Part shown: positions 5,086 to 44,100 of the stretch, piece by piece
How the letters are laid out: the number at the start of each line of letters is the position of its first letter
How positions within the stretch are numbered: the stretch's first letter is position 1
NCBI RefSeq assembly: GCF_963853765.1
Contig: NC_088855.1
Coordinates: 36,402,205-36,466,204 of the forward strand
Direction: 5' to 3'
Length of the DNA stretch: 64,000 nt
Source of the DNA: Magallana gigas
Taxonomy: Eukaryota
Program-made: the position numbers and the translations under genes
The notes under the pieces: generated by a model
What the model was told of the DNA's origin: nothing
The model's database searches: none
What the model saw: only the letters and a program-made list of their open reading frames with translations

Positions 5086-5903
5086 CTATCCCAGTTTCTT
5101 TGATTTTTTCTTTACACCCTTTGGGGGACCAAATATCTTGAAGGTTGTTCTGTAAAAATAAAAAATAGTACTATAAATACATAAATATTTTACAAGAAAT
5201 GATCTTCTTATAACATTTGACTTAATACGACATAGTTTTCATTTGACATGAAATATAATGTAGCAATTCAAAGTCTATTTAATAACAGGGACATACATAT
5301 ATATACTTACTACTTAGTTTATACTCCCTGCTATTAAGTAATGTTGACAAAATGTTTGTATCATTTGTATCTCAAAGTGTACCAAATAAAAATTTACAAA
5401 AAGAACCATGATAAAAATGTTCTCCTTAGTACTGTTTGTGGTGGTACAAGTATATTATCTGTCTATTGTGATTCCAAGGGATATTAAACATGTGCAAATT
5501 AAGGGAGGAGATCAGGAGAGGCCAGGACCCCCCCCCCCCCCCCCCCAACCAATAAAACAATAAAAATTCAAATTTGTTAAAATTTACATAGTAAAATTAC
5601 CAAAAATGTGCCCCAGACCCCCACCCCTCCTCTTCAAAAAAGTTCTGGATCCATGAAAGTAAACATGTACATTACCACCAGAAATAAAGGGGGATCTTCT
5701 ATGTATAGTCAGAGTTACATGTACATGTATCTTATCGTTAATAAATGAAGATCTTAGATATAAACTACTAAGTACTTACTGACATGTTCCACAAATTGGA
5801 CTGAAGGCACAAAATACTACAATAAATGGATTTAAATAATTCTTATGTTAATATACTGGACAAAGTATTTAAACCCAATTATACTACATATCAATTAAAT
5901 TGG

Positions 5904-5942
<39 letters not shown>

Positions 5943-8900
5943 CTTACTTGAGAGACAGACAGAACACACGTATCCGATATCTATGAGGTTGCGGTGACAG
6001 AAGCATGCAGCTCTGTAGTCCACCTGGACTTTGGGAGGAAGGGTCAGCTTTGGTCTCTCAAGGGGGTCGGGAAGGAAAACCCACTGAAAAATGTAATTTG
6101 TTCATTATCTATTTCTGCAATCATGCTATTTCAAACCACATAATCATGTTGATGTAGATTAAGATTGTATCATATGTGGATATTAAAAAAAAAAATTGAC
6201 AAATTCAAAGAGAGTATGATAAAAATTTCAATATTTGGTGCTTTTAACATTTTAAGAAAAGAGTATAACGATGCAAAATAAAAGTTTGCTTACAATTTCT
6301 ATACATTTCTTCTGTGGTCAAATAAGAAAACTACTGGTGACTGATGAGTAATTAAAATTTTTGGGGCAACATGTGCATGGAGGTTCATCATTTGTTAGAG
6401 ATTCAAGTTGCAGTCTTAAAATCATAAAGCAAATAAAGAAAAAAATCTAACAAACCATCAAGTACTGCAACAGTCCTTTCATTTGAGGAATCTTCAGATA
6501 TATGCCCCCGGTTATATCACAAGCCTGAAATTAAACTGGTGTTCACTAAGTAAATTCTACAAAAAAGTAATAAATAAATGCATTTTTACAAAACAATTTT
6601 TCAAATATGAGCCAGCTTTTCTTAACCTGTTGCAGGAGTCCTGATTCATTATCCAAAACACAGGCATCGATTACCACATTCTACAAAGAGAAAAGAAACA
6701 CCACTTGTTCAAAACAATTCTTTTATAAATCTTAATGCATTTAGGTTGTAAGTTATGTGAATATGTATGGTACATGCCTGTTTCTGGGCTGTAAAAACGG
6801 CATTCATTAAATTCATATATTGCTCTGTGTTGTCCTCAGACCCTTTGATCACCTAGAACACAAAAATAATCTTAGATTTCTTATGCATATATATAATTTG
6901 GAGTGTAAACAATTTAGATTTTGATCGTGATCAGTGATTGTTTCAATGAAAACAGTACATGTATACGATATTTTTTTTTAAAGTTCATGTTCTGAATCTT
7001 ACCAGAATTCGACTGGAAAGAATCCCCGCTTCTTCATGACTCCTCTCTGTCTTGTTGATATCTTTTTAAGTTAAGAATCACCATGTCCTAGCAAGTACAA
7101 TGTACATGTGTAATTGCATTTACAGTAATTAATATTATGCTCAAAACAACATTGCAACTTTGCTGAAAATATTCCAAGGATACGACACAGAGCCATGGCC
7201 AAAGCACCAGCAACCAGAGAGTCTGGATAGAGTTGTCCATTCATACCTGAAAAAAATGAACATACGTCTTTTAAATGCGATTCTGTTTTTATAGCATACA
7301 TGTACCTGCTATTATTCAGAATAAAATGAACGTTGATTTTGACCCAATATTCAACTGATTGTTCAGCAAGCACTAGAAAATGCCAGCATTTTTAATATCA
7401 AAACAGACCTAAATACAATAATGTAACAAGATAATATTTTATTCAGGGAAATAAGTTGTTCATTGTAAGATAATCACATTGAAGGTTTTAAAACAAAATA
7501 AATGTAATGAATTTATACAAATCTTTATCCAACATCCATCAGAAAACTTACAATTGTCTATCAGGTTTTTAATTCCCTCTTTGATTTGCTTGTCCACCTG
7601 ATTAAAGAGCTCGTATTTCCCATCAGTCCCTTCTGTCACTTCATCTGCTTCTGATATCACATGAACTGTGGGATCATTCTTTGGATACAAAAACACACTG
7701 AAAACAAAATTCACATAAGTAGATCTATGCACAGAAAACAAATATGACAAAAAACTACTTTAAATCATTAAATAAATTTAATATAGATCTTCAGGATGCC
7801 CTATTAAAAAGCACAAGCTGATTTGCTGATGTGATCCATGCAATTAAATATTTTCTTTTCAAATGGCTGTTATGAGGCCATGCTCTCGCTGTCACTGGCT
7901 TAAGGTGGGTCGCGGGTTTGCTTTCGTCATCAAATTCTGTACGCAATTTAGACAACTTGTATGGCCGTTTTGTGCACATTTGTTTATGACAAATTGCATA
8001 TGAACAATAATTTCTCTTTTCTGTATTTTTGTGGACAATATTTATGTAAAAAGAATCAGCATTATCCTTTGAACCTTAAATCTGTAAAAGTTGTAGCTTT
8101 AGCAGTCCTGAATTTAGTTTTTTATAAATGATTGCTATGACTGAGTAAGTGGAACAGGTTTAACATTTTTTGACGTTGTGCTCATGAAAATGCGACAATT
8201 TTTGGTAGAATAATCAGACACATAAAATAAAATACCAAAATATCTAGTGAGAACTCAAATTTTTTTTTTACATAAATAATTTGTAAATCGTGTTTTCATA
8301 GAAACATAGAAACAATTGATAATTTGTCTAAATTGTTTAGAAGCTATTTGCAATTTCTCAAAATAACTCCCATCTTGGATGTAAAGAGAAATATGCTCAT
8401 TTTCCTATCTGTTTCCTTAGAAAAGCGTCAAAACAGCACCACAAACGATACTAAGTTTAGAGCGGCATTGTATACTAATAGCGTAGGCAAATTGCATAGG
8501 CAAATTTGATAAAAATTTTATATAATGAACTGTATATCCTAAATAATGATTTAACAAATTTTCAGGGCATGTTTCCTCTCGAGATTTTTTATGGGGTAAA
8601 CCTGCGGCCCACTGTAAGTTTGAAAACAATAGCTTCCAAGAATGTAAGATGTTTCCAACTAAAGACACAGTAGCAATTGGGGTAAGTCATTTTGTTTCAA
8701 TTTTTAAGATATAGTTTGGCTATGTATTAAAAAACATCATATGATTTCTATCCAACGCTTACCAAAAAAGAATTTCTTTTGCTTTATCATCACTATTGTA
8801 AGATGCCATTTTAGGTATTCAGCTAACACTAGCAGTTGAATATTTTTATTTTGAATCTAATTTTTCCATTGCAAAGCTCAAAATACTACTGGCATACCAC

Positions 8901-9579
8901 GAATTCTTGCCAAGGTCCACTGACCAGTGCATTTTACGTCATTTTATCAACACACTAAATCATCATTTGTAAGGAAAATGATGTAACAAAGCATAGGCGA
9001 GAAATGGTCCTTGGCCAGAATAAATCTCACACTAGTAAGGCTGATAGTTCATAGAGTTACATTTTTTATGTGCAGATTATTGATTAGTATAGACTCAGCA
9101 AGAGCAAACCTAGAACACATTTTAATCTAGATAACTCTGAATTCTAGCATTCTCGTTTTTTAAAAATAAATAAGTCTTCAGATCAGCTTCATTAATCTAT
9201 AATATCCCACCAAGTCTGTAAGTCAAGCAGTCACAACTAGAAGTTAAAGAATTGTATCATAAATACCTTTGGTCTGAGTGAGCAGCAATAATGGCCAACT
9301 TGTTGGAATGGTTCATCATTAAATGAGAGTGGGCAAAAACCATTACAGAATTCAGGCATTCTGTCAAAGTCATCTAGGTAATGAAATTTGCATAAAATAA
9401 ATCCATTTCAGATCAGTGCTTACAAAATATACCAGTAAACATTCTACTGAAGGAGTAATGGAGACAATTGTTGCAAGGGAATATTACCTTTTGCTGTGCC
9501 TTTGTATGAGATGATGGTTTGTGGCCCCACCATACTGGGTTTGTGTCGAGGATGATGATAAGTTGGCTTTTCACATTAT
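5086..9579 (-). CDS. GTF2H3: General transcription factor IIH subunit 3 (p34/Tfb4). Eleven coding exons were resolved; the first coding exon, with the ATG, was not.
   Basis: The minus-strand exons are 9488-9579, 9267-9373, 7552-7697, 7184-7246, 7003-7061, 6778-6852 (with a GC-AG donor, AG|gcatgt), 6627-6680, 6456-6524, 5948-6083, 5780-5816 and 5086-5149 (stop TAG). The joined peptide aligns against the human p34 sequence as I recall it: [13 protein letters not shown] / [24 protein letters not shown] / SVFLYPKND...[24 protein letters not shown] / [11 protein letters not shown] / [18 protein letters not shown] / [15 protein letters not shown] / WVFLPDP...[25 protein letters not shown] / [12 protein letters not shown] / [20 protein letters not shown]. 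This includes the C-terminal C4 zinc finger. Confidence 0.85.
5905..5941. repeat. (GA)n microsatellite lying immediately 3' of a GTF2H3 exon donor.
   Basis: The tract gagagagag... starts a few bases after the gtaaga donor at 5942-5947. Confidence 0.9.
7062..7183 (-). other. GTF2H3: U12-type (minor-spliceosome) intron in GTF2H3.
   Basis: On the minus strand the donor is TGTC|GTATCCTTgg, which is the U12 5' splice-site consensus /GTATCCTT. The branch site TTCTTAAC (plus strand 7070-7077, gttaagaa) sits 8 nt upstream of the acceptor, ...aaaaag|ATATCAAC. Splicing gives the in-frame join [23 protein letters not shown], which matches human [23 protein letters not shown]. No canonical U2-type GT donor in this region gives an open frame. 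Confidence 0.6.
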
Positions 9580-9947
9580 CTGAAGAAACAAAAAATCACT
9601 TTACAGCTACTGCATGCATTATAAATGGTCTACAATTCATTACAAATACTGTGTGTGTAAATTATATCATGCCTGTCATTTTGACTCTGAGCTCGCATGT
9701 TACTCTTTCATTTTACAACAAAAATGTTAAAGCATTCAATTTTTATTCGTATCAATATTTTCAATTTCTAGTTACAGAAAACGTCAATGAATGTGATACA
9801 GTATTTTTAAAGATACATTTTTTGAATCAGATTTTGTTAAATTTTGAATAGACTATGTGAAAAACTAACACATTAATAGATTTAAACTGATATTTTAAGT
9901 ACGGGCTAACTAAATTCTCTACTTTCAATTTCACGGCTGATGCAAAC
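9580..9947. promoter_or_regulatory. Putative bidirectional promoter and 5' region shared by GTF2H3 (minus strand) and EIF2B1 (plus strand).
   Basis: Only about 370 bp separates the most 5' resolved GTF2H3 coding exon (its 5' end at 9579) from the EIF2B1 ATG at 9948. The two genes are divergent. The unresolved first exon of GTF2H3 must lie in or near this interval. Confidence 0.35.
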
Positions 9948-12900
9948 ATGGACAGAGACGGTAAATATTACAAATGTGCTTTATAGCCCCATGTTAAATA
10001 TATTTTAGAGTGAATATAATTGTAGATATGTTAACTAATATAGCTATAAACTGTTAAGATACTTATAATGAATAACCTAACATAAGTAAATGTATTTTTT
10101 TAAAAATATGTCTCAGTCTGGTGATGAAATGTACACCTGACCATATAATATGTTCAACACATTTATAGTGTATATGTGGCATCTTTTTCATCACATGAAC
10201 TGTATATTAAAGCCTTTATAGCTGTATTTGAGACTACTCTTGTATTGATATATTTTGTACAATCCACAGTATACTGTATAAAACCAGAGACAAATTATGT
10301 CTCTGATAAAACTGGACTTTACATTGATTTAGACAAACCAGTACTTGCCATGCTTACTTTATGTATGTTTCTATATTTATTTTTATTCCAGGTATTTTAT
10401 CTTACTTCAATTCACTTGTCAAAGAGGATCCAAGTCTATCAGTAGCTGTTGCAGCCATTAAGACCTTACTGCATTTTCTAGAGAATAATAAGAGTAAGTC
10501 AAATGTTAAAAGATAAATTTCGGAAAAGAAAATTGTGAATATTAAGAGAAAAAGTCAATCGTAACTTGCAAGCTCAACATAAGATGACATAAATTATTCC
10601 ATTCTTTTTATTTTGTAGTTGAAACATTGGCTGAATTGCGAGACAGACTCAAGGAGGCAATTCAGATTCTTACGGAAACAGACAGCAGTACTACTTCTAT
10701 CTCCTCCGCTGGAGAGCTTTTCCTTCGCTTCATCACCCTCACAAGTTTAGAACACCCTGTAAATATCACTAATGTTCTTCTAATTAGTAGATTTGTATTG
10801 ATGATGTCAATTAGTTATAGATTTAATGATTATTAGGGGACTGCAGATGATCAATAAATCCCTTTACATTAACTGAAGTACTAATCCTTGCAGGGTTAAT
10901 TGATATAACAACATATTGGTGAAAAATGACATAAAAGCAATCAGTGGGGTATCCTTTGTTGTTTTCAGGATATTCAGGACTGTCAGCGGATATTGGTAGA
11001 AAGAGGAAATGTCTTCTTAAACAAGATCAAGAACTCTCGTCAGAAAATTGGCAAACAAGCTCAACAGTTCATTAGAGATGGCACAGTAAGAGGAAGTTAT
11101 ATTCCATGTACTAACAGTCCATATTTTGACTGATTGTTTTAGAAGTGCCAATAATTTTGCTTATTATAATAAGGACGATGGACCCAATTCACTTCTACAA
11201 TAGTGATTTTCATGAAATCTATCGTGTTACTGTGGTTTCATCAATATTCGTTGAATACCAATTTTCGTTGATTTCGATTTTAAGTTTATCCATGAAATTA
11301 AATATTCATTGAACTGCAAATATCATCTACTAATATTTTGTATTGATAGGGTCATTGGCCACAAATTTACGTATCCTTGAAACTGTGATTTTATCCACAA
11401 AAATTGATATCCTTGAATATCAATGAAACCACAGTATGTATGACATATTTTATCGTGAATAATCGTACAGAGTTTTATTTCCTTTGCAGACAATATTGAC
11501 TCACTCAAAGTCCAGAGTTGTCCTTCAAGTTTTGAAAGAGGCTCAGCAATCCAACAAACGGTTCCATGTGTATGTGACAGAATCTCTACCAAACAAGTCA
11601 GGGTCAGTATCTGTATGTGTCTATGTGACAGAATCTCTACCAAACAAGTCAGGGTAGGGCATAAAAAGGCAAAATATGGGTATTTACTTATATATCATCA
11701 TTGATCATATAAAATTAATTATACAAGTTCTCTCTTTTTTTATTAGTTTGGAAACATATAATGAACTTCAAGACATGGAGATCCCGGCAACATTGATACT
11801 AGATGCTGCAGTTGGGTAAACATTTATTAGGGCCCCGCAAGGATTTGCGGGTGCCCTATAGTAATCACTCTGTCCGTCCGTCCTTCTGTCCGTCCGTCCG
11901 TCTGTCACTCTTCCGTCCACAAATTTCGTGTTTTTTTCGAATAACTTTTTTTATGGTTGCCAAATCAAGTTCAAATTTGGTATGGTAGTTCAGTAGGCAG
12001 AAATACATATTTTGATGCTAAGTTTGGTTCTCTATGTCTTCTGGTTTGGAGCTGGGGTGGTGGGGTAGATTCCTAACTATGCATAAGAATGAATGGGCAA
12101 AGAGAGATAACTGCTGAGAATGAATGGGCAAAGAGAGATAACTGCTGAGAATGTTACCATTGTATACATGGAAGGCTGTGCAATATTTGTCCTTTGGGAT
12201 TAATTAACCTTCCACACTATTTTATTTTTTAATTATTTATTTTATTTTTTTCTGCCTTAATGCTGTTAATTTTAACAGGTAATCAGATAATAACCCCATG
12301 CTGTCATTTCGGAAAAAAAAATCTTATTGTAAATTTAGAAGAAAAGGATGAGAGAGCAGAACAATTAATCCCCTGGGATCAATTATCTTGCCTGCTGCAG
12401 AAAATTTAGAGGCTTATCTCTATCTGTCATATCGAGATTAATGAACACCTTTGAAATTGTCTGCACTGATGTTTGTTTTGAAGCAAATTAAACTCTCATT
12501 CCATGAGCTGCACCCTAATATTTTTCCCCCTCGGTTAAAGTGATGTTTGTTTGAAGTTGAGGCAAAGCCTAGGTATCATTGCATTGGTATCAATTCTTTG
12601 TTTTTCTAAAAAAAATTATTTCATCCCATGTTAACCTCCTTTATCCCATGGATATGACTCATTGGATATTTTTTGGATATCCCACAGTTGTGACTTTACA
12701 ACGGGATTTGCGTAGGCATAAAGAAGTAAAATAATGTGGAGTTTAATAAACAGTGTAAACATTGATTGTGGTGTATAAAACATTGGATATTTTTTGGATA
12801 TCCCACAGTTGTGACTTTACAACGGGATTTGCGTAGGCATAATGAAGTAAAATAATGTGGAGTTTAATAAACAGTGTAAACATTGATTGTGGTACGTGTA

Positions 12901-15833
12901 TAAAACATGGGATAAATAGAATCTCATATGATTTGTAGTATAATATGATTTTTATCCAACTTTTGTGTTTTATCCCCTCACTCAAGAAAAAAACACTTTA
13001 ATTGTTGGATGAAAATCATATCCAACTACAAATCATGAGATCCTATATATTGCAGTTCTTTACATCTTATGTTGGGCATTTATTTCTCATCATTGTTAAT
13101 ATAAAGAGGATGGAATTCAACGTTTTTTTTCACTTCTCTATATTAATTGTCATAGCGGGGCCCTTCCTGACTGGTCAGTTTTCTAGTTGATTAATGCTTT
13201 CAAATATCAAACAAATCTTCGAAATTCTTAAGATTGTAAAAGATTTCCAAAATTTAAATGTTTCTTGTAAATGAATGTACATGTTTAATCATGCTAGTTC
13301 CAGAGACTGAACAAAGTTTCTTTTCTATTTTGATATAAAGATATGTAATGGAGAAAGTGGACATGGTGCTGGTGGGAGCAGAAGGTGTTGTAGAGAGTGG
13401 AGGAATCATTAACAAGGTGATTTATATAAATCTATAGGTTATACGCCGTGTAGGGGAATCATTAACAAGGTGATTCATATAAACCTATAGGTTATACGCC
13501 GTGTGGAGAAATCATTAACAAGGTAATTAACATAATCTATAGGTTATACCTCGTGAGGGGGAATCATTAACAGGGTGATTCATATAAACCTATAGGTTTT
13601 ACCTCGTGAGGGGGAATCATTAACAGGGTGATTCATATAAACCTATAGGTTTTACCTCGTGAGGGGGAATCATTAACAGGGTGATTCATATAAACCTATA
13701 GGTTATACGTCGTGTGCAGTTACAGTATGAATTACACTTGCTATTGAATTTGAATGTGTCAATAAAAAAGCACCAGCACATTGGTATACAGTGTATTAAC
13801 CCTTAATGTTGTCTTAGCCTTGCTTTTTCATTTCTTGTTTTTTGCAAATTCTTTTTTTATATAATGCATTTGACCCATGCTTTTGATATAACTATTCTCC
13901 TGGCTCAAATAAATGCAAAAGGTTAGATCATTTCATTTTAAAGCAGTAACAAACTGATGCAAGATGTTCATCCACATAGATGAGAAATGTTCAGAGGTCT
14001 GCAGCTTATATAGGGGTTGTAGGGATAGCCGCAAGGAAAGGGAAGAATGGCAGAAAATGCTTTTCACGAGTCATGTTCAGCTTTAAGAGAACATCTTTTG
14101 AAATTTATATAAAGTATAAATGCATAATTTAAATGCAATCCTCATGTTATTTTATACGATACAAAAAAAACCTAGGATTTTCAAAATTGAATATCCATTT
14201 CTCTTGCTTCACAAATTATACTTGGATCTATACCACTGTAAAAGTAAGTCAAGAGCCTTAAGTGTACCAGTATGTAAAACTGTATGTCAGCTTTAATATA
14301 CAATGTACTTGTACATTATCAACTTTTAAATTCACTTTGTTTTTTTGTAGATAGGAACATACACATTGGGACTTACAGCAAAGGCCATGAATAAACCGTT
14401 CTATGTAGTGGCTGAGAGTTTTAAATTTGCCCGTTTATATCCACTCAACCAACAGGATCTTCCCAATCAATTCAAGGTACCCATATTATTTGTTAAAGCA
14501 GCTGGAAAATAAATGAAAACATGACAGCTCCATTTTTGAAAGAGTATTGTATTTAAAATAGAGTATAATTATCCCCCCTTTTTTTTTTGCAAAGTTAGAC
14601 ATAACCATTAGCCAAATTTTTTTTTAATGCTCTTCAAGATTATTAAAGAAATCTAGCCCCCCCCCCCCCCCCCAACCCCCCACTTTCAATTTGCTTCTGA
14701 CGCCACTGATTGGTGGAATTTTGGGTTATTTGTATTCTATATTGCATGTAGAACAAGTGAAAAGCTGTCAATGTGACAGCAAACCGGGTTTTCTTTTATG
14801 TGAACTGTATCCATAATCCATGTCAACCCGTATCCAGTGAAATGGAGTACCCTATATGCAATATTTTGCCAAAAAATGACTAAGTTCAAAAGCTGGTATA
14901 TTTTCATAAATTATCAGAAATCAAAATTCTAGCAATATGCACACCTCTGATATATGTACAATTGATCTGCAAAAGAACAACTTCCTATCTTGAGAACTGT
15001 AGGAGGACTTATCCGTACAATGAGGGTACCCTATATGCAATATTTTGCCAAAAAATGACTAAGTTCAATAGCTGGTATTTTTTTCATAAATTATCGGAAA
15101 TCAAAATTCTAGCAATACGCACACCTCTTATATATGTACAATTGATCTGCAAAAGAACAACCTCCTATCTTGAAAACTGTAGGAGGAGTTATCCGTACAA
15201 TGAGGGTACCTTTTTGGCAGCCGCCCACTTACCCGCCCGCCTGCCCGCCATTTTCACCATTTTAATAACCGGATTTTTCCGTTGAAAAACCCGGTTAATA
15301 ATACACAGCATCTCCTTGTTCAGCACTGGTGATGTCACATTACCATGTATCAATGATGCACTTAGGTCTGAAACCTATTCGTATATTCTGATAGCGAATA
15401 CATTTATGATCATTTAACAGAAAATACAATTCATTTCTAAATCCTTCAACTCTAAATCAGCCCTTTGGCATTTACCGGTATTTGGATGTGTTAATATTCT
15501 CTAGGTTGTATTCCTTTCTGAAAAATGTCTCCATGAATTTTGACAGACCATGTGTGGTTGTGCATGACAAATTTACTGAATATACATTTACTCAATATCA
15601 TATTTAAAAAATCAACAACATTGACACAGTATCGGTGTCACAGATTATGTACCATGTTATTATTTGTTTGGTTTCAGTACCATGCAAAAGTGTTGAAGTC
15701 TAGTCCGGACCTGATGAAGGAGCACCCCCTGGTGGACTACACTCCCCCCTCCTACATCACTCTACTGTTCACCGACCTGGGCGTCCTCACCCCCTCAGCT
15801 GTCAGTGATGAACTCATTAAATTATACTGTTAA
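9948..15833 (+). CDS. EIF2B1: Translation initiation factor eIF-2B subunit alpha. All nine coding exons were resolved, giving 303 aa.
   Basis: The exons are 9948-9960, 10392-10493, 10619-10758, 10969-11085, 11490-11602, 11747-11815, 13341-13416, 14351-14476 and 15678-15833 (TAA). All junctions are GT-AG and all phases are consistent. The protein reads [38 protein letters not shown]...[17 protein letters not shown]...[14 protein letters not shown]...[59 protein letters not shown]...[34 protein letters not shown]. It is colinear with human EIF2B1 (305 aa), and the C-terminal 24 residues are nearly identical. Confidence 0.9.
11213..11433. mobile_element. Foldback MITE-like element in EIF2B1 intron 4.
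   Basis: It has inverted termini, actgtggtttcatcaatattcgttgaat... on the left and ...attgatatccttgaatatcaatgaaaccacagt on the right. A homologous half-copy occurs at 42455-42560 inside a PARP4 intron. Confidence 0.4.
11566..11656 (+). repeat. 51-bp tandem duplication (x2) spanning the EIF2B1 exon 5 donor junction.
   Basis: The unit tatgtgacagaatctctaccaaacaagtcaggg occurs at 11571-11603 and again at 11622-11654. Each copy ends in a usable donor: GG|gtcagt for the first and GG|gtaggg for the second. Read-through of the first copy stays in frame with no stop codons and would repeat the peptide [11 protein letters not shown]. Confidence 0.85.
12657..12905. repeat. Tandem duplication of about 124 bp (x2), intronic.
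   Basis: The block cattggatattttttggatatcccacagttgtgactttacaacgggatttgcgtaggcat...gtaaacattgattgtggt is repeated head-to-tail. Confidence 0.85.
13402..13715 (+). repeat. Roughly 60-bp minisatellite with about five units. Each unit carries a copy of the EIF2B1 exon 7 3' end together with its GT donor.
   Basis: The unit ggaatcattaacaagGTgattcatataaacctataggttatacgccgtgtgg is tandemly repeated immediately after the authentic donor AACAAG|gtgatt at 13416/13417. Each unit keeps the exon tail ggaatcattaacaag followed by gtgatt or gtaatt. Confidence 0.85.
14840..15215. repeat. Tandem duplication of about 185 bp (x2) in the last EIF2B1 intron.
   Basis: The block ...gagggtaccctatatgcaatattttgccaaaaaatgactaagttcaa.agctggtat...caattgatctgcaaaagaaca.cttcctatcttga.aactgtaggagga.ttatccgtacaatgagggtacc is repeated. 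The ORF-track entry 14962-15285 shows an internally repeated peptide as a consequence of this repeat. Confidence 0.8.
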
Positions 15834-20700: not shown

Positions 20701-23700
20701 ACACGGTTATAGCGAACACGCTTATAATGAATTGACGCTTACAGCGAAGTGAATTTCATTCCCCAAGATTCTATTTCATGTTGTAAACTTGATGGATATA
20801 ACGAATTATGCTTATAACGAAGTTAAATCGCCCGTCCCTGGGACTTCGTTATAAGCGTGTTTTACTGTATTATTAATAATGAATCAATATGGTTTGTTCC
20901 TTGCTTTTCACGAAGAGATTATAATTCTGTAGAAGCAGAAATATTCATTAAGGATTTAAAAAATTTCATTATTTTCGTTGGCAGAATAAATCAACGAAAT
21001 TAAATCCACAATAAATATTTCATCCAAGTATTATAAATACAAAGTTGATAGGTGATACAATTTAGAAATTGCAATATGATGAAATTAATTGCCAACAAAA
21101 TTTTATTTGGTTTAAAACAACAAAATTTTAACCCAACCAAAATATGTGGTTTTTTTTATAATTAACAACTCTAACACACTTTTGAATTGCTTTTAAACTT
21201 AAACCTGCCTGAGCATCTAAATAATCAAGGTCACACTCTGTATTTGAAGCTAGTTTTGCTTTGTACTTCATTTACATACACTCATGTAGTTAAATCAACC
21301 ATGCATGTTTGAATAAGTAAGGACCATCATTAACCCAGATATGTGACCTGCTCGAAAAACTTTAAACTCATCCAGCATCACCTAATGCTCATCAAAGCTT
21401 GAAGAGTGCATTAGTATTAAAAGATGCATCATCCATCTAAGTAAAGATAGGACCAAAAATATCATAAATGTGATCATCATAAGGCAATTAATGCTCTATA
21501 ATTGTTTAACCTGGTTTTAAACCTGTAACCTCCTTCAGCATTCAATACCTATGGCTTAGATTCAGCAATCAAGTTTGTCAAGTGCTTAAGTATCATTAGA
21601 TGAACACTCTATGAAAGTTTGGTGAAGACAGGAATAAGGCTATTATTAACCTGAATATGGCCATCAAAGGGCAAATGCACCAAAGACTTAGCCTGCTCCT
21701 TAACTGTAACCTCCTTTAGCATTTGATACCTATAGCTTAGATTCAGCATCCAATTTTTTATTCCTGAAATGTGCCTAGATGCACCATAGGCTCAGTGAGC
21801 TGAAAATAACAGCAAATCTGTGTATACCTTTGTACTTGCTCTTATAAGGCATACTTATCAATGAAAGTCACTCTCAAATGTTTCTTACCTCTCTTTTCTC
21901 TGTGGATTAACATAAACGTCAATTTCATAATTTATGTTTTCCCTGGTACTAATCTTTTGATAGTGCAAATTCCCTGAAATAAGAAAATCATAACTTGAGT
22001 TCAGATTAAATATAGTGGCAGAGTTCTGTCTTGGATTTCTCATTTAAAAAACTTCAAATCTCAGATTTATGTCTCAGTTTCTAGTAAAAATTTTATTTTG
22101 TCCTCCAATTCAAGAAAGCACAAATTTGTATATTAAATTTCTAAAAAAAATTGTTTTAAACTAATTACTTTAACCATGTCAGACTTAAATCAAATCTCAA
22201 ACATTGAAACAATATAAATTGCATGAATACAAAATTGTTAATGTTATTAACATTCCTTAATTAGATCCATTCCACTCAGTTACAAATATGGAATTAATCA
22301 TTATCATTTACCAATACTCTGACTTTCTTCATAACAAACTTGATTCATATATCTTTGTTATAAGAATGTTCATCTATACCTGTCCAGCAGTGGACTTCAA
22401 AATCTCCATTTCCAACAGGTGCCTCAAACTGACTTTCATAAAGGCACAAGGAATTCAAAAGTTCTACAAAGAGGCAATTGCAATAAATCAATGCATATAA
22501 ATACAAAATACATAATAGGACAGAAATCATGTTTATTTCTTCAACTATAGTTTATTCTGTTTAAATATTTAATCCATTATCTCACCTTCTTCTGATAGCT
22601 CTAGTTCAAACTGGGTTCCCTTCAGATTATATGGTTCTTCGGTTCTCTGTGGCATCTTACTATCATCACTTTTCTTACTTATTTTTCTTTTCCTGCCTCT
22701 TGTTTTCTTTCCATACAATTTTTTTCTCCTATCTTTAATGCTTCTGTCTCTATCCCAGCTTCTATCACTACCCATTTTACTACTTTCCCAATACCAATCT
22801 CTTCTTTTGGATTTTCTGTAAATGTTTCTATCTCTTCTATTTTCTCTTTCATCCCAGCTTTTATTCCGGCGTCTGACTCTACTATCCCAGCTTTTGTTCC
22901 TGCTTCTGTCTCTTCTACCCCAGCTTTGATCCCTTCTTCTGTCTCTTCTATCTCTTCTTCTGTTTTCTCTTTCCCAGCTTCTGTTCCTACTTCCATCCCT
23001 ACTCTCCCAGCTCCTATCCCTACTTCGGTCTCTTCTATCCCAGCTCCTATCATAACTTCTGTCTCTTCTATACCAGCTCCAATCTCTACTTTTGGTTCTA
23101 GTATCTCTGTTTCTATCCCTACTTCTGGTTCTAATATCCCTGCTTCTATCCCTACTTCTGGTTCTTCCATCCCAGCTTCTATCACATCTTCTGTCTCTTC
23201 TATCCCAGCTTTTATCATAACTTCTGTCTCTTCTATACCAGCTCCAATCTCTACTTTTGGTTCTAGTATCTCTGTTTCTATCCCTACTTCTGGTTCTAAT
23301 ATCCCTGCTTCTATCCCTACTTCTGGTTCTTCCATCCCAGCTTCTATCACATCTTCTGTCTCTTCTATCCCAGCTTTTATCTCTACTGCTATCCATGCAT
23401 CTATCTCTACTTCTGTCTCTTCTTTCTCTTCTTTTATTTTCCCTATCCCAGCTTCTGTCTCTACTCTCCCAGCTTCTATCCGTACTTCTTGATTTCCTAG
23501 TACAGCTCCCATCATAACTTCTGTCTCTACTCTCCCAGCTCCTATCCCTACTTCGGTCTCTTCTATCCCAGCTCCTATCATAACTTCTGTCTCTTCTATA
23601 CCTGCTCCAATCTCTACTTTTGGTTCTTGTATCTCTGCTTCTATCCCTACTTCTGGTTCTAGTATCCCTGCTTCTATCCCTACTTCTGGTTCTACTATCC

Positions 23701-26700
23701 AAGCTTCTATCACATTTCCTGTCTCTTCTATCCAAGCTTCTATCCCTACTTTTGGTGCTGCAATCCCTGCTGTTATCTCTACTGGATCTTTTATCTCTAC
23801 TGCTGGTTCTACTATCCAAGTTCATATCTCTACTTCTCTCCCTTCTACCCAAGCTACTATTCCTGCTTCTGGTTATACTATCACAGTTTCTAACCCTACT
23901 TCTGTCCCTTCTACCCAAGCTTCTATCCCTTCTTTTGGTGCTATTATCCTTGATTTTGGTTTTACTATCCAAGCTTCTATCCCTACTGTTGGTGCTACTA
24001 TCCCTGCTTCTGGTTATACTATCACAGCTTCTATCCCTTCTTCTGGAACTGTTATCCCTACTTTTGGTGCTACTATCCCGGCTTCTGGTTATACTATTCC
24101 AGCTTCTATCCCCACTTCTTGATCTTCTATCAAAGGTCCTATTATGACTTCTGTCTTTTCTATTCCTACTTTTGGTGCTACTTTCCCTACTTCTTGTTAT
24201 ACTATCCCAGTTTCTATCCCTTATTCTGGATCTAGTAACCCTGATTCTATCCCTACTTCTGGATCTTCTATCCAAGCTCCTATTCATGCTTTTGGTTATA
24301 ATATCCCAGCTTCTATCCCCACTTCTTGATCTTCTATCAAAGGTCCTATTATGACTTCTGTCTTTTCTATTCCTACTTTTGGTGCTACTATCCCGGCTTC
24401 TGGTTATACTATTCCAGCTTCTATCCCCACTTCTTGATCTTCTATCAAAGGTCCTATCATGACTTCTGTCTTTTCTATTCCTACTTTTGGTGCTACTTTC
24501 CCTACTTCTTGTTATACTATCCCAGTTTCTATCCCTTATTCTGGATCTAGTAACCCTGATTCTATCCCTACTTCTGGATCTTCTATCCAAGCTCCTATTC
24601 ATGCTTTTGGTTATAATATCCCAGCTTCTATCCCTACTTCTTAATCTTCTATCCAAGCTCCTATCAATGCTTCTGGTTAAAATATCCCAGCTTCTATCCC
24701 TACTTCTTGATCTTTTATCAAAGTTCCTATCATGACTTCTATCCAAGCTTCTATCCCTTCTTTTGGTGCTACTATCCTTGCTTTTAGTTTTACTATCCCA
24801 GCTTCTATCCATACTTCTGGATCTGTTATCCCTCCTTCTATCCCAGCTTTTATCCCTACTTTTGGTGCTACTATCCCTGCTTCTGGTTATACTATCCAAG
24901 CTTTTTTCTTTGCTTTTGGTGCTTCTATCCCTGCTTCTGGTTATATCATCCAAGCTTCTTTCCTTACTTTTGATGCTACTATCCTTGCTTCTGGTTATAC
25001 TATCCCAGCTTCTATCCCTACTTCTTAATCTTCTATCAAAGCTCCTATCATGACTTCTGTCTCTTCTATTACTACTTTTGGTGCTACTATCCCTGCTTCT
25101 GGATATACTACCCCAGTTTCTATCCCTTATTCTGGATCTAGTAACCCTGCTTCTATCCCTACTTCTGGATCTTCTATCCAAGCTTCTGTTCCTACTTTTG
25201 GTGCTACTATCTCTGCTTCTGGTTATACTATCCCAGCTTCTATCCATACTTCTGGATCTGTTATCCCTCCTTCTATCCCAGCTTTTATCCCTACTTTTGG
25301 TGCTACTATCCCTGCTTCTGGTTATACTATCCAAGCTTTTTTCTTTGCTTTTGGTGCTTCTATCCCTGCTTCTGGTTATATCATCCAAGCTTCTTTCCTT
25401 ACTTTTGATGCTACTATCCTTGCTTCTGGTTATACTATCCCAGCTTCTATCCCTACTTCTTGATCTTCTATCAAAGCTCCTAACATGACTTCTGTCTCTT
25501 CTATTACTACTTTTGGTGCTACTATCCCTGCTTCTGGATATACTACCCCAGTTTCTATCCCTTATTCTGGATCTAGTAACCCTGCTTCTATCCCTACTTC
25601 TGGATCTTCTATCCAAGCTTCTGTTCCTACTTTTGGTGCTACTATCTCTGCTTCTGGTTATACTATCCCAGCTTCTATCCATATTTTTGGTGCTACTTTC
25701 TTCGCTTCTATCACTATTTCTGTCTCGTCTATTCCAGCTCCTATCCCTACTTCTGTCTCTTCTATGCCAGCTCCTATCACAACTTCTGACTCCTCTTTCT
25801 TCTTGTCTACTGTTATATTTCCTGTTTCTACTCCTTCCTCTTCTCTTAAAAACTGGACTTTTACTACTTTTAAAACTTTGATCTTCACTTTGCAAATATC
25901 TATTTCTTTTTTCTGAACCCGTGCCTTCTGAATAATTAGATTTTTCTTGTTCTCCATATCTCTTAATTATATTAACACTACTCTCATTTTCCTCAATATC
26001 TCTCTCATTTTCCTCAATGTCTTCATTTTCATCAAAGCATTTGTCTATTGGTCTAGGTCTTCTCTCTAAACTACTTCCCCTGTCATCATCCACCTCAAAA
26101 TCATCATCTTCACTGTCAGATTCAACATGAATATCACCATCTGAATATTCTTCGTCTGCTTTCTGATCTATATTGCCAGTGAAACTTTGTGGTGGCACGG
26201 TTTGAGAGACTGCTTCTGTAGTGGAGAAGTATGTTTGTGATATGGTGGGATTGTATGCTGGTGAGGTGGGACTGTATGCTGGTGAGGTGGGACTGTATGC
26301 TGGTGAGGTGGGACAAAATCCTGCTGAGGTAGAACCATATGCTGGTGAAGCAGGACTGAATGCTGGTGGGGTAAAACTGTTTGTATGAATGGTAGGAGTT
26401 AAAGTAGCCCTTAAGGAATAGCCCCTTTTCTTAGAAGCACTGGAACTTTGAATTGTTGATTTTAAAATCTGATTTAATTCCATAAGAGAGGAATTTTGTA
26501 CAACTTCATCTGGCTCATTTTCCTTTTGTGTTACATCAATGTCAAACTCTACATTATCTAAGTCTGATTCATTGAGTACTGCTGTTATTGACACACCTGT
26601 GGTGTTGCCAACATCATTCAACTGTTCAGCTATTACATTTGGTCCTTCTTGCTGATCCACCAAACTTTTCTGGTATTCCTATAATATAACAGAGATAGCC

Positions 26701-41100: not shown

Positions 41101-44100
41101 GTTAGCGTAGACAAGCAGCGCGGGATTTGAAATTTTAGATGGAAATCGGGACTTATTGTCGTAAAACGGGTTGGACTTTTTGAGAATCGGGATTTCGAGG
41201 TATTTTGACAATCCCGATCGGGATATCGGGATTTGTATTTTTGATGACGTGAAATCGGGAGAATCCCGCAAAAATCGGGATAGTTGGCATGTATGTATTT
41301 ACTTGAATGAATTGGAGAAGTAGATTCCATATCCCAGTTTTCCCCCATCTGTCCTGTTCACTCCGTGTTCCTCCACTACATTTTGAGGAAGAAGTAGTCC
41401 CCTAAGAGAAAATCATTCATTGCCTGAATCACAAACTGTAATTGCACACTGTTGCAGTGTTTATAGTCTCAAATTATCAATCAAAAGGTGTTATCTACAT
41501 GTATTCTTCATAGTTAATATATGAATTGAATTAAACACAAATTTTGTTATGGCATCTAAGTACTTTACATAGAAAAATGTCAATCATAGAAACCTAGCTT
41601 GTATTCACCAATGAATGACAAGTTTACCTTGATAGAATTCCCAAGAGATTATGGGGCCCTGAAGCATGCATCAATAATTGTGTGTTTCCAATACATTCAG
41701 CAGTACTCTCAAACAAAATGTCCTCCATGGTTCTCCCAGCTTCAAAAACACTGTGAACTGCAATGCTTTAAAAAGACAAAAGCAACACTTATACGACATG
41801 ATGATAAGAAAACAAAACTTTGAGAAAACATACACATACATGTGCATGATTATTAGGATGAATGTTTACACACAGTCTTTAAAATGGAGTATAAAGTATA
41901 AAGGCAACTACTTTAATAACAAGAAAATAAAAACCACCTTTGTTCACTGTCCTTGAGAATATTTTGTATGACTTGATATTTGCTGGCAGACAGGTCCAAT
42001 TTTGTCATGTGACATCTTAGGGCCCTGTACTTAGCAACAGTGCTGGCAGCAGGAGAAAAATCTGTGGCTTCACTTACAGCCAAGACATCATAGATCAACT
42101 GCAAAAGATAGATATAAATGCAAGACCATAAAAAATATATCAATATGAGCATGTTAAATGGCCCAACTGCAATTTACTGCTAACTGCTTTTAATAGCTTG
42201 AATAAAAACTTTGAGAAAACTTCAGAAAACAGGTACATAGTTAACTAGCCGTGATTTTTAATTGCCACCATAATATATAACTTTCGGTACACATAAAAGC
42301 ATACTGCTACATTTCAGTATCCCAAATAAAAATCTGCACAAGATGTGGAGAAAACATTCATTGTATACCATGTTTTCCTGTCTGTGTGCCATTCAAATTT
42401 TTCTGCAACCCAGGAAATTAAATGTTCATTGAAGTTCAATTTCAACTAACACTTTGTATTGATAGGATCATTGGCCACGAAATTACGTATCCTTAAAACT
42501 GTGGTTTTCAGAAAATCCACGAAAATTGATACCCACGAAAATTAATGAAACCACAGTACCTGACACAAATCTAGTTTCTGGGAGATGGTTTGTGGATCTA
42601 GATCTCGTGTTATGTACTGTTGTTTGTGGGGGAGAGCCTCGTTATAGAACTCTTCCACTAATCCAGCCAAGCGGTTGTCTCCTTGATTCTCTTTCTTCAT
42701 CTGCTTAATCTGTTGCAAAATGACCATGGCATCATCTACCTACAAATGAGATTTAAAAAGATTACGTTACACATTTTCATAACTTATTTTCCATTTGACA
42801 TAAGGACTACATGTAAGAAGATCAAATACTTACATGTAAGAGCAAAACAATGCATACACTTTGTTTTGCACATTAACAACAGCTTTTCTAAGCTTTACCT
42901 GAAACAAGCAACAATGATAAATTAAGATGCATACTTTATCAGATTTGATATGTTCCATAGACATAGTAAGCATTTTCTCAGCCTCTTGGGTGGCTTCCTT
43001 CCAAATCATCTCCACAAACTGTCCGACATCTGGATCAAGGTCACTGTTCATCAAACAAAGATCATCCAATGTCTGAAGAAAAAAGAACCTATAGCCCTTA
43101 ATTTCTGCCACAATGTTGTACAAAGTGACTTCACATCAAACTCCACTTATCTTTTGTGACATTTTACAACAGTATGTATCAATGTAAACATGAGATTAAA
43201 ACATTGTTTAATTGTCAATAGTTGTAGAGTTATTGAATTACAGGAAAATTTTGAGCTTTTATCAAACACCATTTGAGATATAGAATCATACAAAATTAAC
43301 ATGCCTAGTGTACATCAATACTTTTAGTACTTTGATTAATATTTGTTGGTAGTGAATTCTTTACCATTTTGAGTTTGTGTGACCCTATTTGATTGGAGAC
43401 AAATCTAGGTGTGTACCAAGGTTCCATATTCATCATGCCTGATGTGTACCTCTTGTAAAGTTGTTCAAAACAAACCAGAACTTCATCAGCAGTATCCAAA
43501 TACCAGACCACAGGGCCTTCAGAAGCCAATATGTGCTGCAAGAGTAATTTATGTTTAGTTAAGTGCTCATGAATAACTTACAGCTATACAAACAACAACA
43601 AAAAAAACCACAAGTAAAAATCAATTTTTTCCCATAGAAATGGAAAAAAAAAAGATAAGGGGACTAATTTTAACATAACTTCACAGAAAAGAGTCATTTT
43701 TACATTTAACCTGTAGAGGAATATCATTGAAGGATTGTGTTCTATAGAAGCACAGTAATCACCTCCCCATCCAAGTGTCCCTCCTGATGATATAGCCGGA
43801 ACTTGTCACATGACGTCAGCGCATGAACCTCAATAACCTGAATCACTTTTGTTGACTGAAAAGTGAATAATGAGAAATCATAAATTAAATTGTATATCAT
43901 TTATTAACATTATGATCTTGCACATCAATTTATTATCACATGTATATATATAAATAAAATATGGGAATTACTAGGATTGGGTGGAAATCAAACATTGTGG
44001 TGAGTCAATTCTAATATAGCACATAAGCTGTCTCAATTCAGGTTTCAAAATACTAATCCTTGTCAATTAAATTAACTGACCTATATTGTACATGTATATA

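Follow-up and report, generated by a model that had tools for sequence, protein, structure and literature searches.

A probable U12-type intron in the Pacific oyster GTF2H3 gene, shared in position with other animals and grapevine

The GTF2H3 gene and its fifth intron

The window analysed here is a single stretch of oyster DNA, 64 kb in full, and the element in question is one intron of the GTF2H3 gene, which encodes the p34 (Tfb4) subunit of TFIIH. This Pacific oyster gene lies on the minus strand and has 12 exons for a product of 302 amino acids. Bases 7183-7062, intron 5 of the gene, very probably constitute a GT-AG intron of the U12 type, i.e., of the class handled by the minor spliceosome. 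The original prediction had placed such an intron in a TFIIH p34 orthologue, and this is upheld by RNA contigs, by the splicing signals and by a conserved minor intron in mammals. When the minus strand was re-read, the coordinates 7062-7183, the donor and branch motifs and the joined peptide all proved right.

We assembled the exons on the reverse complement, by eye and with a script. An exact-sequence look-up of the 302-residue product returned XP_034335927.1, general transcription factor IIH subunit 3 of Magallana gigas. As the two proteins are identical, the window is from the Pacific oyster (Magallana/Crassostrea gigas), and the junctions of oyster GTF2H3, including that between exons 5 and 6, are already present in the RefSeq annotation. 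The model protein matches Pfam PF03850 (Tfb4) with an E value of 4.7e-101 over profile positions 2-273 of 273, and it matches human TFIIH p34 chains from cryo-EM structures in the PDB with an E value of 3.5e-104, ungapped over the exon 5/6 junction. A full-length Tfb4 domain, with its vWA-like fold and C-terminal zinc-binding Cys cluster, and the orthology to human p34 identify the gene as the TFIIH p34/GTF2H3 orthologue. The gene and the elements of intron 5 are as follows.

5086..9679 (minus strand): GTF2H3 coding region, from the gene model, Pfam, the human p34 alignment, RNA contigs and RefSeq identity.

9679(ATG)-9673, 9579-9488, 9373-9267 and 7697-7552 (minus strand): exons 1-4.

7246-7184, 7061-7003, 6852-6778 and 6680-6627 (minus strand): exons 5-8.

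6524-6456, 6083-5948, 5816-5780 and 5149-5086 (minus strand): exons 9-12.

7184..7246 (minus strand): exon 5, which ends ...GCTCTGTGTC at 7184 and includes the first base of a His codon.

7062..7183 (minus strand): intron 5, 122 nt, GT-AG, phase 1, very probably U12-type; from the gene model, RNA contigs and the RefSeq protein.

7003..7061 (minus strand): exon 6, which begins ATATCAACAAG (ATATCAAC) at 7061 and supplies bases two and three of the His codon.

7176..7183 (minus strand): 5' splice site octamer GTATCCTT, next base G; from the motif scan, conservation and identity with human and mouse.

7070..7077 (minus strand): branch-site box TTCTTAAC, which departs from the consensus TCCTTAAC by a single C-to-T change.

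7071..7073 (minus strand): TAA inside the branch box, the first in-frame stop if intron 5 is retained; from translation of the retained form.

7062..7069 (minus strand): purine-rich 3' end ttaaaaAG, with the AG at 7063-7062 and no polypyrimidine tract (9/18 pyrimidines).

Intron 5 falls within a His codon (C|AT), the one that follows the Cys of ...ALAMALC. It opens with GTATCCTTGG, and the nine-base donor GTC|GTATCCTTG at 7183-7175 sets the motif /RTATCCTT exactly at the exon end. The termini are GT...AG, one of the two pairs of the U12 class (GT-AG or AT-AC). Near the other end, the branch box stops 8 nt before the end of the intron and is followed by ttaaaaAG. The candidate branch adenosines are 7072, 10 nt from the 3' splice site, and 7071, 9 nt from it. 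The box is close to TCCTTRAY (one mismatch), and its adenosine falls into the expected interval of roughly 8-20 nt. The mismatch, a C-to-T change, would still pair with U12 small nuclear RNA (snRNA) as G-U. Against the consensus of U1-type donors (CAG|GTAAGT), the donor of intron 5 scores 3/9 matches, the lowest of the 11 introns in the gene, while the other ten score 5-7. The pyrimidine content of the 18 bases upstream of the AG is likewise the lowest of the gene (9/18; 10-16 in the other introns).

Excision of intron 5 precisely at 7184|7061 is seen in mRNA. Two assembled RNA contigs, L010 (SRR16709599) and L001 (SRR14492783), read CTGTGTC|ATATCAACAAG (CTGTGTC|ATATCAAC) and thus join 7184 to 7061, the splice junction that had been proposed as a check. 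L010 is 98-100% identical to the exons in the window and hence stems from the same species, whereas L001 is about 92-97% identical and hence stems from a sister oyster species. After this C, the genome continues with G but the mRNA with A, and the genomic base preceding exon 6 is not C; the junction can thus be shifted neither way. The peptide across it, ALCHINKTER, is present in all transcript-derived proteins of the 90% cluster to which oyster p34 belongs.

Two arguments from the reading frame did not hold. The join at 7184|7061 had been called the only one that preserves the frame, and no U2-type GT donor of the region was thought to give an open frame. A full listing of the GT/GC/AT...AG/AC combinations between exons 5 and 6 gave 113 donor/acceptor pairs of at least 31 nt which keep the frame without a stop, e.g., the U2-type donor ACT|gtaaat at 7123 with the same AG. 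The frame of exon 5 stays open through most of the intron: in the retained form, it reads 36 intron codons (...LLGHGDS*) up to the TAA at 7073-7071 in the branch box. By a rough calculation from base composition, an AT-rich stretch as long as the open first ~100 nt of the intron would be free of stops with a chance of about 6%.

Intron 5 in other lineages

To compare the gene across species, orthologous proteins were threaded exactly onto genomic loci. Seven animal species were covered in this way, which gives eight animal lineages together with the window. All seven carry an intron at the same codon and in the same phase which starts with GTATCCT. Donor, 3' region and length of each intron are given below.

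Ostrea edulis: gtatccttg, ggttcttaaccaaataag, 331 nt.

Haliotis rufescens (abalone): gtatccttc, ttcctgaaccaaacag, 138 nt.

Octopus vulgaris: gtatccttt, accttaat..., 1769 nt.

Lingula anatina (brachiopod): gtatcctta, ttctttaactccgcatgaatag, 158 nt.

Capitella teleta (annelid): gtatccttt, gaccttgaccttatacag, 76 nt.

Branchiostoma floridae (amphioxus): gtatcctct, ttcttaactccttacag, 166 nt.

Desmodus rotundus (bat): gtatccttg, attccttaatgctaagaaaataag, 683 nt.

Positions +1 to +7 of the donor are invariant in the eight animal lineages, and +8 is T in 7/8. No conservation is seen beyond +8, and apart from the donor not even the two oyster introns (window and Ostrea) can be aligned. As GTATCCT is invariant while the rest of the intron cannot be aligned, selection on the very sequence bound by U11 and U6atac is implied. 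The box TTCTTAAC is identical in Ostrea and Branchiostoma, and the other taxa have related boxes.

In mammals, the orthologous intron is a catalogued one. The work on the Minor Intron Database classes human GTF2H3 and mouse Gtf2h3 as minor-intron genes; it gives GCT|GTATCCTTG as the 5' splice site, and as branch sequences TATTCCTTAATG in human and TATTCCTTTATG in mouse (Olthof et al. 2019, supplementary file 3, PMC6717393). The bat intron, located at ALC|Y, reads TCTGCT|gtatccttgg...attccttaatg; its signals exactly match those catalogued for human and mouse, and it lies at the same codon and phase as the oyster intron. Oyster and mammals thus share the orthologous gene, the codon and phase (checked on bat), the nine intronic bases GTATCCTTG, the GT-AG termini and a branch box near the 3' end without a pyrimidine tract. 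They differ in length (122 nt in oyster vs. 683 nt in bat and mouse and 1475 nt in human), in the branch box (TTCTTAAC in oyster vs. TTCCTTAAT) and in the split codon, which is His (C|AT) in oyster and Tyr (T|AT) in mammals. The same catalogue gives the oyster box TTCTTAAC for two accepted minor introns of human genes, NUP107 and CEP126 (PMC6717393).

The claim that the position is ancient is borne out and reaches beyond the metazoans. The plant locus was reached by a search of representative proteins, followed by a homologue search seeded with a streptophyte alga. TFB4 of grapevine (Vitis vinifera) has an 85-nt intron (positions 1038-1122 of L012) at exactly this codon and in phase 1 (...SLSMALC|Y|IQRV). 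The sequence there is CTTTGCT|gtatccttgataat...tttttgacttaattctatgaatag|ATATAC, and the intron signals are of the U12 type (gtatccttg ... gacttaattctatgaatag), with the donor GTATCCTTG. Since animals and grapevine share U12 signals at the same codon and phase, position and class of the intron are, on this sequence comparison, older than the plant-animal split. U12 introns conserved between human and Arabidopsis have been described, and they are concentrated in the 5' part of genes (Basu et al. 2008, PMC2426677). The shared position and class in Vitis TFB4 and in animals resemble these cases, whereas oyster intron 5 differs from them by its place in the middle of the gene, at about residue 139 of 302. 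Neither GTF2H3 nor TFB4 was found named in that paper or its supplement (PMC2426677).

Two further lineages depart from this pattern. In the amoebozoan Planoprotostelium fungivorum (L013, 934-977), the same codon and phase are interrupted by a 44-nt intron of the U2 type (T|gtgagtcatt...catacag|AC). It fits the known conversion of U12-type into U2-type introns, which is one-way (PMC2426677). We regard it as a candidate for such a conversion, with the direction set by parsimony. In Mytilus galloprovincialis, residues 71-220 of p34 are encoded in a single exon (L003, 7127-7576); five adjacent introns of the other molluscs are absent, including the U12-type one, and the flanking introns remain. 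The loss of five introns at once suggests a cDNA-mediated event. Both U12-to-U2 conversion and intron loss were reportedly described by Burge and colleagues in 1998, and they are also treated by Basu et al. (2008). The Planoprotostelium intron and the Mytilus loss would be expected fates of an old U12 intron. Among the representatives listed, no cnidarian, sponge or similar orthologue with a genomic contig was identified.

According to a pan-eukaryotic survey, minor introns are comparatively numerous in molluscs (PMC10639083). A literature search for GTF2H3 together with minor or U12 introns returned the gene solely in the list of Olthof et al. (2019, PMC6717393). GTF2H3 is not named in the supplements examined among PMC7507305, PMC6865273, PMC10639083 and PMC7367187. 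The literature search gave nothing relevant on U12-type introns in Crassostrea, and the papers on AT1G18340 included none on splicing.

Spliceosome class and alternative explanations

We infer from sequence that the minor rather than the major spliceosome removes intron 5 and that removal depends on U11, U12, U4atac and U6atac. Several points weigh against a U12-type intron. The branch box deviates from the consensus at one position, and 9-10 nt between branch point and AG are at the short end of the usual range. An Rfam scan of the 64-kb window at gathering thresholds gave no match at all, neither a minor snRNA gene nor an RNA inside the intron. Moreover, the donor octamer is not rare: RTATCCTT occurs five times in the window, vs. 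6.2 ± 2.5 in dinucleotide shuffles, i.e., at chance level. Three of the other sites (10949, 11371 and 11407) are within introns of an eIF2B-alpha-like gene, and one more is at 42487. Neither the RTATCCTT scan nor a loose scan for donor, branch and AG, which gave chance combinations only, turned up a second U12 intron in the window.

As both the open-frame argument and the rarity of the donor fail, the case rests on the placement of the motif at the exon end, on the contrast with the other introns of the gene and on conservation. These also decide against the notion that the motif pair is a meaningless chance match, which the counts in the window and the loose donor/branch/AG combinations elsewhere might favour. 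The other octamers read lie inside introns, whereas that of intron 5 stands exactly at an exon end that is defined by mRNA, and it has been kept from plants to animals. The significance lies in this: the motif is exactly at an exon end which mRNA and homology fix independently, and it is conserved in other lineages. Conservation already contradicts a chance reading, and we give it next to no credence.

Hardly more credible is the use of another donor-acceptor pair, e.g., ACT|gtaaat at 7123 with the AG at 7062, which would make the GTATCCTT boundary a modelling artefact. The 113 alternative pairs and the mostly open frame of the intron would permit this. Against it, ALCHINKTER is what two independent RNA contigs encode and what all transcript-derived proteins of the cluster contain, and the alignment with human p34 is ungapped, while the alternatives add or remove residues in a manner seen in no orthologue. 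Such pairs could at most give rare isoforms; as the main form, they are contradicted by the RNA contigs.

A somewhat more serious proposal, though still very improbable, accepts the boundaries and assigns the removal of intron 5 to the major (U2-type) spliceosome, with the U12-like motifs as a relic or a coincidence. GT-AG termini can be used by both spliceosomes, and the U2-type intron of the amoebozoan at the same site (T|gtgagt...acag|) indicates that the major spliceosome can serve this position. Furthermore, some introns with U12-like signals are reportedly spliced by both machineries (PMC10853781). What speaks against the major spliceosome is the donor itself, with only 3/9 U1-type matches, and the lack of a pyrimidine tract. 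In addition, GTATCCT is invariant in eight animal lineages and grapevine although the rest of the intron is unalignable, and the mammalian orthologue is a catalogued minor intron. The U12 signals are thus kept in the orthologous introns, including that catalogued for human and mouse and matched in bat, and we consider the U12 class of oyster intron 5 very likely.

For a U12-type intron 5, the steps of removal can be outlined from the established model of minor splicing. U11 would pair with the 5' splice site GTATCCTT and later be replaced by U6atac. U12 would pair with TTCTTAAC, using G-U at the C-to-T change, and the branch point would be a bulged A7072 or A7071 at a distance of 9-10 nt from the AG. 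Both sites would be recognised co-operatively by the U11/U12 di-snRNP, and the nearby AG of the 3' splice site would be read by ZRSR2, not U2AF. The U4atac/U6atac.U5 particle would then join and complete catalysis. If intron 5 were not removed, translation would stop at the TAA in the branch box, which would lead to a truncated or degraded product. Slow or inefficient minor splicing could, therefore, limit the output of p34, and we put forward such a regulatory role as a hypothesis. A stronger version holds that the U12 identity has been kept since before the plant-animal divergence because the amounts of p34, and hence of TFIIH, are set by slow, regulated minor splicing. This seems doubtful to us. 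If it were true, intron 5 would serve to control the machinery of transcription and DNA repair and would not be a passive relic.

The more sober view is that intron 5 is correctly called and ordinary: it is orthologous to a minor intron already catalogued in mammals, and the junctions of the oyster gene are annotated. The GTF2H3 minor intron in mammals, the oyster junction in RefSeq and the conservation of U12 positions between plants and animals are all described already. The modest addition is the lineage map, with a U12-type intron in six other invertebrate lineages, a mammal and grapevine, a U2-type intron in an amoebozoan and a loss in Mytilus; it is a tidy example of three known fates of an ancient minor intron. 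Beyond that, a rare intron class was rightly called from raw sequence. Intron 5 is a useful positive control for genome annotation because gene finders which assume U2-type signals often mis-model U12 introns.

GC-AG introns, neighbouring genes and repeats

Two other introns of GTF2H3 have GC donors.

6681..6777 (minus strand): intron 7, GC-AG (AAACAG|gcatgt ... tttgtag|AAT), from the gene model; junction in L001 and L010.

9580..9672 (minus strand): intron 1, a second GC-AG intron (ATGACAG|gcatga ... ttcttcag|ATA), from RNA contigs.

The GC-AG intron 7 had been pointed out from the sequence (donor CAG|gcatgt, 6777/6776), and it is real, as its junction is present in the same RNA contigs; intron 1 had not been mentioned. 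The donors have 7/9 (intron 7, CAG|gcatgt) and 6/9 (intron 1, CAG|gcatga) consensus matches, and both junctions are found in L010. Apart from the GC, introns 1 and 7 resemble other GC-AG introns of the major spliceosome, with a strong U1-type consensus and good pyrimidine tracts, and they are unrelated to the U12 intron 5. The donor of intron 7 is GT in Ostrea and six other taxa, and that of intron 1 is GT in Ostrea. Because the other taxa compared have GT, both GC donors are specific, on these alignments, to the oyster lineage of the window.

Within later introns of the gene, two simple repeats were noted.

5909-5941: a (CT)n/(GA)n microsatellite which starts 8 nt past the donor of p34 intron 10.

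5528-5547: a run of about 20 C/G within p34 intron 11.

An eIF2B-alpha-like gene (Pfam IF-2B, E value 3.7e-29) is arranged head-to-head with GTF2H3 on the plus strand, from about 9948.

10620-10749, 10970-11086, 11490-~11605 and ~13340-13417 (plus strand): example exons of the eIF2B-alpha-like gene.

The first exons of the two genes are separated by only about 240-270 bp. A divergent pair of GTF2H3 and an eIF2B-family gene is also present in Ostrea, Mytilus, Haliotis, Octopus, Lingula, Branchiostoma and a bat, and its retention points to an old, shared bidirectional promoter. In Crassostrea virginica, RefSeq/UniProt models of about 2,600-3,150 residues ("Multifunctional fusion protein", LOC111132307 and LOC111135118) share the 90% cluster of oyster p34. 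In these models, the annotation seems to have fused GTF2H3 to an adjacent gene by read-through.

Several tandem repeats contain copies of exon ends.

13402-13714 (plus strand): a 53-nt unit in about 6 tandem copies, which comprises the last ~15 bases of an eIF2B-alpha exon and the donor (GGAATCATTAACAAG|gtgatt).

11560-11660 (plus strand): a similar duplicated exon end with donor.

The eIF2B-alpha exon in question ends at 13417, and the following intron opens with about 6 tandem copies of the 5' splice site. In Mytilus galloprovincialis (L003, 9500-11370), a 35-nt unit that matches the end of the GTF2H3 exon for ...YVCSVCLS is repeated in tandem about 50 times. The copies occupy the start of the following intron and form the same kind of exon-end/donor minisatellite as in the eIF2B gene of the window.

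The last observation concerns a more distant part of the window.

22569-26663 (minus strand): an open frame of 1364 codons, largely Arg/Ser/Asp repeats (RSRDRSWD...).

It is preceded by some heptads like those of the C-terminal domain (CTD) of RNA polymerase II (SPAYSPTSPAYSPTSPAY; Pfam RNA_pol_Rpb1_R, E value 2.4e-5), which are few in number. The region shows extreme strand asymmetry, with a GC skew of about -0.49, and many nested tandem-repeat periods from 33 to 435 nt.

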